Assembly: GCA_021735655.1 (NCBI GenBank)
Contig: JAIPGM010000011.1
Coordinates: forward strand, 1-56,791
Length of the DNA stretch: 56,791 nt
Reading direction: 5' to 3'
Source: Candidatus Omnitrophota bacterium
GTDB taxonomy: Bacteria; Omnitrophota; Gorgyraeia; Duberdicusellales; 4484-171
The notes under the pieces were generated by a model, which saw only the letters and a program-made list of their open reading frames with translations, did not search any database and was not told the origin of the DNA. A program made the position numbers and the translations under genes. The first letter of the stretch is position 1, and the number at the start of each line of letters is the position of its first letter. Below are positions 37,917 through 39,740 of the stretch, in pieces.

Positions 37917-38959
37917 GAATTCTATTTGCCTGTGAGCGAAGCGCTGGCCATATTTTTCCTGCGCTTAGCATCGCTAAGAAGATAAAAATTGCTCAACGAG
38001 ATTCGGAGTCTGAGAAAAAAGAAGAGATATACTTTTTTGTTAGCTCAAAGGATCTTAAAAAATATGTTGAGGCTGAAGGGTTTGTTGTTTTTGGTAAATA
38101 TTTTTCTTTTCGTTGCTTGGCGATAGAGGGTTTTTTCAGGTTTATTGAGGCAATTTATATAATTTCTAAATTAAGGCCAGAGAGGGTTATTGGTTTCGGC
38201 GGCAGAGATAGTTTCTTTTTGATATTATTGAGCAGTTTACTTTCGATAGACACTGTACTTTATGAACCGAATGTAAGCTTAGGCAAAGCGAATAAGGTTC
38301 TTTCAAGGTTTGTAAAGAAGATCTTGAGGGGTTTTCCCAGCCAGGAGTCTTCTCAAAAGAATCTTGTGTTTGGAGTTCCTTTAAGAGATAATTTGAAAAG
38401 ATTAGATAAGCAGAAAGCCCGGGAAATACTTCAATTTGATGCAAAAACAGTTATCCTTTGCTGTGGCGGTAGCCAGGGCTCTAGATTTATCAACCAAAAC
38501 TTTGTTCGTTTCGTTCAGCAGTTTAAAGGGGACTGTCAAATAATACATTTGACTGGTAAAGATAAGTTCTTGGAGATTAGGGAAAACTATAATAAAATAG
38601 AGTGTAAAAGCTTTGTTGAGGACTTCTACTATAATTTGGAAGTTTTATATAGTGCAGCTGACTTGGTAGTTTCACGAGCCGGAGCTTTAACTCTATCGGA
38701 AATCTCATACTACCGGTTGGCAGCCTTGCTTATACCGCATACCGGGGCTTCTGGTCATCAAAGAGAGAATGCGCTTTATTTTCAGCAAAGAGATGCGGCA
38801 TTACTATGTTCAGAAGATAATTTTTCATTTTCAGATTTTAGCAAGTCTTTAAGTAGTCTTATTTATGACGATAACTTACGTGAACGTTTAGCTCTTAATG
38901 CAGCTAAAATCGAACTAGGAGTAGATTTTGAAAGTTTGGATATTAATTATTGGCGTTAG
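37913..38959 (+). CDS. murG: Undecaprenyldiphospho-muramoylpentapeptide beta-N-acetylglucosaminyltransferase MurG
   Basis: N-terminal ILFACERSAGHIFPALSIA (G-loop GGxGGH-like), GT28 fold, in the dcw position. Confidence 0.85.
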   Translation: MRILFACERSAGHIFPALSIAKKIKIAQRDSESEKKEEIYFFVSSKDLKKYVEAEGFVVFGKYFSFRCLAIEGFFRFIEAIYIISKLRPERVIGFGGRDSFFLILLSSLLSIDTVLYEPNVSLGKANKVLSRFVKKILRGFPSQESSQKNLVFGVPLRDNLKRLDKQKAREILQFDAKTVILCCGGSQGSRFINQNFVRFVQQFKGDCQIIHLTGKDKFLEIRENYNKIECKSFVEDFYYNLEVLYSAADLVVSRAGALTLSEISYYRLAALLIPHTGASGHQRENALYFQQRDAALLCSEDNFSFSDFSKSLSSLIYDDNLRERLALNAAKIELGVDFESLDINYWR

Positions 38960-39740
38960 CTTAGCTCTTTTGTTTACGATTACTCCGGTTGCAATTGCTT
39001 TTGGAGATAAAACTACAGATTTTCAAGAGTTGCGTTCGGAGCATTTCATGATTCGTTATCAAGATGGAGTCTCTAAAGATTATGTTTACGATATTAAGAA
39101 AACCGGAGAAAAATTTTACCGGATAATTACTCAACAGTTTAATCTTATTCGGGATAAGCTTTGGCTGTGGGATAATCGAGCTCAAGTCTTTATCGCTAAA
39201 GATCAAAAAGAATATCTTAGTAAGTTTGGTTGTTCTAGTTGGTCGGGGGCTTGTGTTAACTATAAGGCTAAGATTATCTACACCTACCCTAATCAGAAAA
39301 GCTTTAATTCCATTTTTATCCATGAATTAACACATATTATTCTTCACGAATATGCGGGTAGAAATCGTCTTTCGCTCTGGCTAGATGAAGGAGTTGCAAC
39401 TTATATTGAGGATAAGTATAGCATGGGTCTTTACCAAAGGAGACTTTCTTATTTACAGAACGCGATTAAACAGGGGAAGCATATACCTTTATCGGAGCTC
39501 ATCCGGACGACTTCGAGCGTTTTAACGAAAAAATCAGCTGATTATGTCAGTTTGTTTTATGTTGAATCATTTTCGATAGTTAATTTTTTCAGCAAGCGAT
39601 ACGGAAAGTATAAGTTTTCCAATTTCCTTTCTCGTCTTAAACATGGGGAGAGCATTGAGAGCGCTATTTCAAAGTCTTTTAGTGACTGTAGAAATTATGA
39701 AGAGCTAGAGAAACAATGGATAAAATTTTATCTAAAGTAA
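38928..39740 (+). CDS. Secreted/membrane-anchored zinc metallopeptidase, peptidase MA (gluzincin, Peptidase_MA_2/DUF1570-like) family
   Basis: N-terminal hydrophobic signal or anchor, then HELTHIILHEY (HExxH) and WLDEGVATY about 20 aa downstream as the third zinc ligand. TTG start overlaps the murG end. The insertion between murG and murC is unusual. Confidence 0.65.
   Translation: MKVWILIIGVSLALLFTITPVAIAFGDKTTDFQELRSEHFMIRYQDGVSKDYVYDIKKTGEKFYRIITQQFNLIRDKLWLWDNRAQVFIAKDQKEYLSKFGCSSWSGACVNYKAKIIYTYPNQKSFNSIFIHELTHIILHEYAGRNRLSLWLDEGVATYIEDKYSMGLYQRRLSYLQNAIKQGKHIPLSELIRTTSSVLTKKSADYVSLFYVESFSIVNFFSKRYGKYKFSNFLSRLKHGESIESAISKSFSDCRNYEELEKQWIKFYLK

Follow-up and report, generated by a model that had tools for sequence, protein, structure and literature searches.

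We analysed the Candidatus Omnitrophota contig JAIPGM010000011.1 (assembly GCA_021735655.1) over positions 1 to 56,791 of the forward strand, hereafter the window, a stretch of 56,791 nt that carries a cluster of genes for division and the cell wall (dcw) with an unexpected open reading frame (ORF) at its murG-murC junction. Few gene arrangements in bacteria are as well conserved as the dcw cluster, whose content defines the core machinery for building the wall and dividing the cell. In the window, it runs on one strand in the order mraZ, rsmH, an ORF of 120 amino acids (aa), ftsI, murE, murF, mraY, murD, ftsW, murG, the gene considered here, murC, murB, ddl, ftsQ, and an ftsA-like gene. These are the genes, order, and strand of the canonical cluster (mraZ ... 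ftsW-murG-murC ... ftsQAZ), from which the window differs in two respects: an extra gene, for a predicted exported peptidase, stands between murG and murC, and ftsZ is absent at the cluster end.

A first-pass annotation of this DNA had described a 270-aa gene placed between murG and murC and overlapping both, and had read its product as a zincin of the peptidase-MA type with an N-terminal signal or anchor, an HExxH motif, and a downstream third-ligand glutamate, inserted into the cluster in a lineage-specific manner. At the level of the locus, this description is accurate. The ORF, listed from a TTG start codon, shares its first 32 nt with the 3′ end of murG and runs 25 nt past the ATG of murC, and the identity of both neighbours is confirmed by Pfam. 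A canonical Shine-Dalgarno-like AGGAG lies within the murG coding sequence, 6 nt 5′ of the TTG. The product is 100% identical to NCBI protein K9L86_07745, a hypothetical protein from a Candidatus Omnitrophica metagenome-assembled genome (MAG). The ORF is a genuine gene, with motif evidence that goes far beyond chance; a 120-aa ORF on the minus strand (38961-39323) is its shadow and was rejected as a gene. The common strand, the overlaps with both neighbours, and the lack of a terminator-like site nearby mark the gene as a probable member of the dcw operon. In the promoter/terminator scan, which was uninformative in that its counts were at or below shuffle expectation, no terminator-like site was found near the peptidase gene, and the best promoter-like site (27882-27910) lies directly 5′ of mraZ. 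In clade I of the family, defined below, the peptidase gene is translationally coupled to murC.

Judged from sequence and a structural model, the product is a gluzincin of the Peptidase_MA_2 family with an M1/M9-like fold. Pfam Peptidase_MA_2 (PF13485) matches residues 117-266 with 48.6 bits against a gathering score of 32.4 (E = 1.2e-12), and the window protein, like this family, has one catalytic domain in which a Glu follows HExxH downstream; homologues in NCBI are already named ‘peptidase MA family metallohydrolase’. The peptidase-MA assignment is thereby supported. Of the two Pfam families put forward in the first-pass annotation, however, Peptidase_MA_2 alone stands, as DUF1570 (PF07607) has no match to the window protein at E ≤ 1 and appears only as a ‘faint’ precomputed match on an Elusimicrobia relative. 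An AlphaFold2 model built from a 34-sequence alignment (predicted local distance difference test score, pLDDT, 89.5; predicted template modelling score, pTM, 0.84) consists of a helix at residues 2-17, a low-confidence linker at 18-28, and a single globular domain. The modelled domain has the thermolysin-like fold of a gluzincin, with two subdomains, one formed by a mixed sheet and the active-site helix and the lower one helical, and its nearest folds are the catalytic domains of M9 collagenase, M30, and M1 enzymes. When searched as a single sequence, the window protein had no match among PDB sequences; when the family profile was searched against all PDB sequences, M1 aminopeptidases were the sole matches, with HExxH, WLxEG, and F210-Y211 superposing.

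The active-site residues are conserved throughout the family. The window protein carries HELTHIILHEY (H132, E133, H136) and WLDEGVATY (E154), with E154 aligned to WLNEG of the M1 enzymes and a spacer of 17 residues between H136 and E154, compared with 18 in the aligned M1 chains. In the profile alignment, F210-Y211 falls on the ‘PY’ of 3cia, a cold-active aminopeptidase of the LTA4H type, and the Tyr of this pair is the catalytic Tyr of the LTA4H-type family. All 85 aligned sequences share H132, E133, H136, E154, and Y211, together with H39, F40, E61, W79, W81, R84, W105, and W151, and H132, E133, and H136 are likewise invariant in 34/34 sequences of the smaller alignment. Of the 240 homologue matches listed, every one has HExxH and 239 have the third-ligand WxxE[G/A]. 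The zinc ligands are thus both conserved and aligned to the M1 zinc site, and the conservation of HExxH and of the third-ligand Glu among homologues, through which the first-pass annotation could have been overturned, is complete across the 85 sequences. Given the invariance of the catalytic residues and the presence of HExxH in every listed homologue, the window protein is predicted to be a catalytically complete gluzincin rather than a degenerate fold.

Membership in the better characterised gluzincin families can be set aside. Peptidase_M1 is below threshold for the window protein (15.9 versus 27.7 bits), and the N-terminal beta and C-terminal helical domains of M1 aminopeptidases such as aminopeptidase N, LTA4 hydrolase, and 3cia are absent from its 270 residues. 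The strand preceding the active-site helix reads G107-A-C-V-N111 in the window protein, WS[GAS]ACV[ND]Y in clade I, and WSSGCA-type in clade II, with no conserved acidic residue. We take this strand to be the GxMEN position of M1 enzymes, by position and M1 numbering rather than by a tool alignment; on that reading, the N-terminus-binding Glu of GxMEN would be replaced by Val. M1 membership was rejected on these grounds, and the window protein is probably not an aminopeptidase: without the exopeptidase Glu and the capping domains of M1, an open-cleft endopeptidase is expected instead. The resemblance to the M9 collagenases (ColG/ColT/ColH, Vibrio) and to M30 lugdulysin/hyicolysin is structural only, at 14-20% sequence identity. 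Unlike these enzymes, the window protein is far smaller, has no activator, collagen-binding, or PKD domains, and has its gene in a housekeeping operon, not in a locus for virulence or nutrition. Neither M9 nor M30 profiles matched it at E ≤ 1 in Pfam, and M9 membership was rejected on the missing Peptidase_M9 profile and activator domain. Flagellinolysin (NCBIfam NF033876) was likewise rejected, as the score of 22.6 bits falls far below its cutoff of 205.

In line with the first-pass suggestion, the N-terminus of the window protein and of 95% of the family resembles an export signal or membrane anchor. By a hydropathy heuristic, the window protein begins with K2, about 22 hydrophobic residues, and A-I-A at 22-24, and its best 12-mer has a Kyte-Doolittle (KD) value of 3.0. 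In 95% of the family (249 members), a K/R precedes a hydrophobic 12-mer with KD ≥ 2, and the uncharged stretch, with a median of 15 residues, makes the N-terminus signal-peptide-like. A lipoprotein is unlikely, since the window protein has no lipobox and a lipobox-like motif occurs in 3.6% of the 249 members. A lipid A acyltransferase gene nearby (49388-50227) points to a diderm envelope, so that an exported protein would reach the periplasm. C102 and C109, which may form a disulfide, are invariant in the 34-sequence alignment and, among the matches listed, occur in nearly all proteins of clade I (118 of 120) but in none of clade II (0 of 120); in clade I, the pair fits an oxidising compartment. 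A 409-aa family member (P0349), annotated by JGI as ‘thiol-disulfide isomerase/thioredoxin’, is an apparent fusion of the peptidase domain to a thioredoxin-like domain, in the naming of that source, which also fits a periplasmic location. The features of the peptidase gene and its immediate neighbours are collected in Table 1.

Table 1. Features of the peptidase gene and of the surrounding dcw cluster (positions in the window)
Feature	Position	Strand	Basis
dcw cluster holding the peptidase gene	27942..44934	+	Pfam scans
murG, upstream neighbour	37913..38959	+	Pfam Glyco_transf_28 (E = 2.1e-10), Glyco_tran_28_C (E = 3e-23)
Shine-Dalgarno-like AGGAG	38917..38921	+	Read from sequence
Peptidase coding sequence, predicted 270-aa gluzincin, Peptidase_MA_2	38928..39740	+	ORF, PF13485, AlphaFold2 model
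Putative N-terminal export signal or membrane anchor, residues 1-24, MKVWILIIGVSLALLFTITPVAIA	38928..38999	+	Hydropathy heuristic
C102...C109 pair (CSSWSGAC), before/within predicted substrate-binding edge strand	39231..39254	+	Alignment
G107-A-C-V-N111, strand 109-111, presumed GxMEN position	39246..39260	+	Sequence, model strand, motif counts
HELTH: predicted zinc ligands H132 and H136, catalytic base E133	39321..39335	+	Alignments
E154 in WLDEG, predicted third zinc ligand	39387..39389	+	Alignments
Y211 (F210-Y211), putative transition-state-stabilising Tyr	39558..39560	+	Alignments
Peptidase stop/murC start overlap, 25 nt, translational coupling	39716..39740	+	ORF coordinates, sequence
murC, downstream neighbour	39716..41092	+	Pfam Mur_ligase, Mur_ligase_M, Mur_ligase_C

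The position of the gene is conserved across Omnitrophota. Three distant homologues on long contigs, one of them a complete 1.8-Mb genome, are all encoded between murG and murC. A scan of genome contigs with the single window protein yielded 3 loci only, and a metagenome scan with the alignment yielded 80 further loci, which were classified by tblastn using the dcw proteins of the window. This gave 85 non-redundant sequences, of which 64 are encoded next to murG and/or murC, 4 between ftsW and murG, and 15 elsewhere; the contigs of the remaining 2 are too short for placement. A neighbour-joining tree of the 85 sequences contains two deep dcw-resident clades, which share only about 32% identity. 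Members of clade II are 31-36% identical to the window protein, occupy the same murG-murC position, and belong to Omnitrophota wherever they are named; in clade I, most loci repeat the overlap of 25 nt with murC. Because all of these loci had been found via the peptidase itself, we also took a sample anchored on MurC, consisting of 6 MurC homologues (51-65% identity) on long contigs and outside the peptidase match list. A PF13485 gene lies directly upstream of murC in 6/6 of them, with its stop exactly 25 nt inside murC. The lineage-specific insertion into related dcw clusters that the first-pass annotation had proposed is thus real, Omnitrophota-wide, represented by two clades, and present in loci selected independently of the peptidase.

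The peptidase has diverged in step with the neighbouring Mur enzymes. Over 49 loci, peptidase identity to the window rises and falls with MurC identity (Spearman rho 0.80) and with MurG identity (0.86), and its mean is 42.8%, compared with 44.6% for MurG. The GC content at third codon positions (GC3) of the peptidase gene, 0.332, equals that of six neighbouring genes (0.301-0.340), and recent horizontal insertion was rejected on this basis. Given the co-divergence with MurC and MurG, the MurG-like identity, and the neighbour-like GC3, these comparisons indicate that the insertion is ancient, vertically inherited together with murG and murC, and strongly constrained. Two database labels disagree with this distribution and are likely to be mistaken. 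A contig titled ‘uncultured Planctomycetia bacterium’ (CAZSDJ010000010.1, our L006) carries a typical Omnitrophota dcw cluster with the peptidase, at 52% identity, and a MurC 56% identical to that of the window (P0469) is labelled ‘Candidatus Aenigmatarchaeota archaeon’.

In one sub-lineage, the cluster holds two copies of the gene in the arrangement ftsW-pepA-murG-pepB-murC, a further departure from the canonical dcw order. Both copies are seen in L092 (466-1239 and 2249-3025), and six metagenome loci (L023, L025, L027, L028, L030, and L032) share the arrangement, their second copy lying about 800 nt upstream of murG. The duplicates are 41% identical with motifs intact in both, and the two-copy arrangement accounts for the loci with a peptidase gene between ftsW and murG.

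A strictly universal dcw position for the family was rejected in view of the 15 sequences found elsewhere. Three paralogues (L057, 3986-4777; L063, 3-770; L077, 157-981) are followed directly by a type II secretion system (T2SS) pseudopilin G gene, and in L057, the sole T2SS-type locus with upstream sequence, the T2SS E and F genes precede the peptidase; such paralogues may be secreted by the system as a substrate or may help it to remodel the wall. Members of a larger paralogue group are followed by a gene of about 291 aa for a response-regulator/GGDEF diguanylate cyclase (L064, 3890-4756; L069, 544-1359), and the downstream ORFs in L075, L080, and L087 are of the same size. Two further paralogues follow a 100-aa ORF (L048, 1507-1809; L049, 339-641), and the ORF in L048 belongs to the YggT (YlmG) family; this yggT-linked group is named Omnitrophica in NCBI. 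The YggT/YlmG family is associated with the division cluster in other phyla. The tail of the profile search contains an Elusimicrobia MAG relative (L089) located outside any dcw cluster, and a limitation of the family to Omnitrophota was rejected accordingly. At that locus, the peptidase gene (3976-4824, minus strand) and a second Peptidase_MA_2 paralogue (4892-5830, plus strand) are adjacent and transcribed away from each other, and the pair adjoins a gene for a heavy-metal P-type ATPase.

The wider family is large. Homologue searches returned 160 proteins with the window protein and 899 with a distant relative, and an exhaustive profile search yielded 157 cluster representatives at E ≤ 1e-30 and, as the family merges into the wider MA superfamily, 9,263 at E ≤ 1e-3. 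The Omnitrophota dcw subfamily is a tight group within this continuum; clustering at 50% identity resolves it into about 157 clusters (E ≤ 1e-30), and it has invariant residues of its own. Whereas Peptidase_MA_2 at large is broad and functionally uncharacterised, the dcw subfamily is set apart by its fixed genomic position and, within this broad fold family, appears to be specific to Omnitrophota. Collectively, these results make it very probable that an exported, active gluzincin is resident in the dcw cluster throughout the phylum. In the literature searched, we found no published description of this gene, of Peptidase_MA_2 in dcw clusters, of a zincin between murG and murC, of its duplication within the cluster, or of its co-divergence with the Mur enzymes. 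What is known is the Peptidase_MA_2 family; what is new is an exported zincin between murG and murC across the phylum.

The remainder of the cluster contains several divergent genes, and the first 18 kb of the window hold ordinary housekeeping genes. The 120-aa ORF between rsmH and ftsI (29507-29869, plus strand) has no Pfam match and occupies the ftsL position. As listed, the murD ORF (35505-36809, plus strand) begins at a TTG and shares 58 nt with mraY; the alignments of most homologues set in only around residue 18-23, so that the true murD start probably lies further downstream. The gene in the ftsA position (43789-44934, plus strand, 381 aa) has no Pfam match, its best PDB sequence match is FtsA at E = 0.02, and its orthologue in L004 has a precomputed SHS2_FTSA match; it looks like a very divergent FtsA. 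Directly after it, in the usual place of ftsZ, lies a 640-aa ORF (44960-46882, plus strand) with no Pfam or PDB sequence match, orthologues of which, 635-642 aa long, are found at the equivalent place in L002, L003, and L004; it is followed, with an 11-nt overlap, by a gene for an HD-domain protein. The tubulin signature GGG[TS]G[STAG]G was found in no frame of the whole window.

With regard to function, we consider it somewhat better than an even bet (about 55%) that the window protein is a periplasmic zinc endopeptidase and a fixed accessory of the dcw cluster, with a role tied to the cell wall or to division. It would be made together with the enzymes of peptidoglycan precursor synthesis and the proteins of the divisome, exported across the inner membrane, and either released into the periplasm or kept attached to the membrane on its periplasmic side, where it would cut a peptide bond needed for wall growth or for the separation of daughter cells. 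An enzyme for the cell wall or for processing lipoproteins, as suggested in the first-pass annotation, is likewise a hypothesis. Several observations weigh against this reading. Gene position by itself is no proof of function, and 15 of the 85 family members are encoded outside dcw in unrelated contexts, so that the family is not intrinsically tied to the cluster. In clade II, the peptidase gene is set off from murG and murC by short spacers, without overlaps. The choice between a cleaved signal and an uncleaved anchor rests on the hydropathy heuristic. Finally, at E ≤ 1, Pfam matched the window protein neither to wall-binding domains (LysM, SPOR, PG_binding) nor to the known families of wall hydrolases (M23, M15, M14, M74, NlpC/P60, and Amidase_2/3).

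Within this reading of a dcw-associated periplasmic endopeptidase, two kinds of substrate have to be weighed, and the fold and the genomic context pull in different directions. To our knowledge, every characterised M1, M9, M30, or thermolysin-like enzyme acts on ordinary L-peptides, and the fold therefore favours a substrate of this kind. The peptidase may accordingly process or turn over a protein of the envelope, the divisome, or the autolytic system. Escherichia coli offers functional analogies, and no more than these, in the exported proteases Prc/Tsp and BepA (M48), which have wall or division substrates; Prc/Tsp processes FtsI and degrades MepS. We lean towards such an L-peptide substrate over the stem peptides of peptidoglycan, tentatively and at well short of even odds.

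The context, by contrast, favours peptidoglycan, owing to the slow, MurG-like divergence, the invariant surface-type residues, the T2SS-linked paralogues, and a reported lack of AmiA, NlpD, and EnvC. On this alternative, the protein would be a peptidoglycan hydrolase, an endo- or carboxypeptidase acting on stem peptides or cross-links, which makes space for new material or splits the septum in place of the amidase/NlpD/EnvC system. Its gene is embedded among those for lipid II synthesis and the divisome across the phylum, and MurG-like slow change together with the invariance of H39, E61, W79, W81, R84, and W105 suggests a small substrate that is itself invariant. Paralogues in T2SS/pseudopilin operons are in keeping with this, as trans-envelope machines often bring their own wall hydrolase. 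The missing wall-binding domain tells against it, however, and stem peptides, with their D-residues and gamma-linkages, would be unusual for a thermolysin-like site. Known peptidoglycan peptidases belong to M14, M15, M23, M74, NlpC/P60, or serine families, and we know of no MA-clan gluzincin that acts as one. A 2016 survey, which included only three Omnitrophica genomes, reported no detection of AmiA, NlpD, or EnvC in this group (PMC5147048). Taken together, these points leave a peptidoglycan substrate rather unlikely. Its strongest form is unlikelier still, namely that the protein is the first MA-clan gluzincin to cut peptidoglycan peptides and the missing septal or space-making hydrolase, encoded among the lipid II genes, stoichiometrically coupled to them, and replacing amidase/NlpD/EnvC in a phylum whose division may also do without a dcw-encoded FtsZ.

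A different explanation for the fixed position is that the gene is a frozen accident, an early insertion kept in the cluster only because its removal would disturb murC expression. Its product would then be a protease of general use in the periplasm or outside the cell (in nutrition, predation, or protein quality control), with a function unrelated to the wall. The 25-nt overlap with murC would indeed make deletion costly, but clade II holds the same position though the overlaps are absent there. Family members in unrelated contexts, including the one between the T2SS F and G genes, which may be a secreted substrate, and the Elusimicrobia relative outside dcw are compatible with a general protease, as is the view that Omnitrophota are host-dependent or predatory (bioRxiv 10.64898/2026.06.07.730766). 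Against a mere passenger, the duplicated copy also stayed in the cluster, on the opposite side of murG, and the conservation of the peptidase equals that of its essential neighbour. We regard this explanation as improbable. Degenerate LytM factors such as EnvC and NlpD provide a precedent for inactive peptidase folds in division, but a pseudo-protease that merely binds a divisome partner is highly implausible here, because degenerate domains behave in the opposite way to a family that retains H132, E133, H136, E154, and Y211 in all 85 sequences and HExxH in all 240 listed homologues. The remaining probability falls to other or unknown roles.

Omnitrophota are ultra-small and largely uncultured bacteria with a poorly understood division apparatus, in which conventional septal hydrolases and FtsZ were not readily detected. 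An extra exported enzyme that is kept in the dcw cluster phylum-wide, changes as slowly as MurG, and remained there when duplicated is a strong pointer to an unrecognised component of this machinery. If its substrate were peptidoglycan, wall hydrolysis would be extended to a new peptidase clan; if it were a divisome protein, a proteolytic control step would be revealed. The gene provides biochemistry with a concrete target, small (about 240 aa) and soluble, as well as a simple genomic marker for Omnitrophota dcw clusters, and it opens a testable route to how an uncultured phylum divides.

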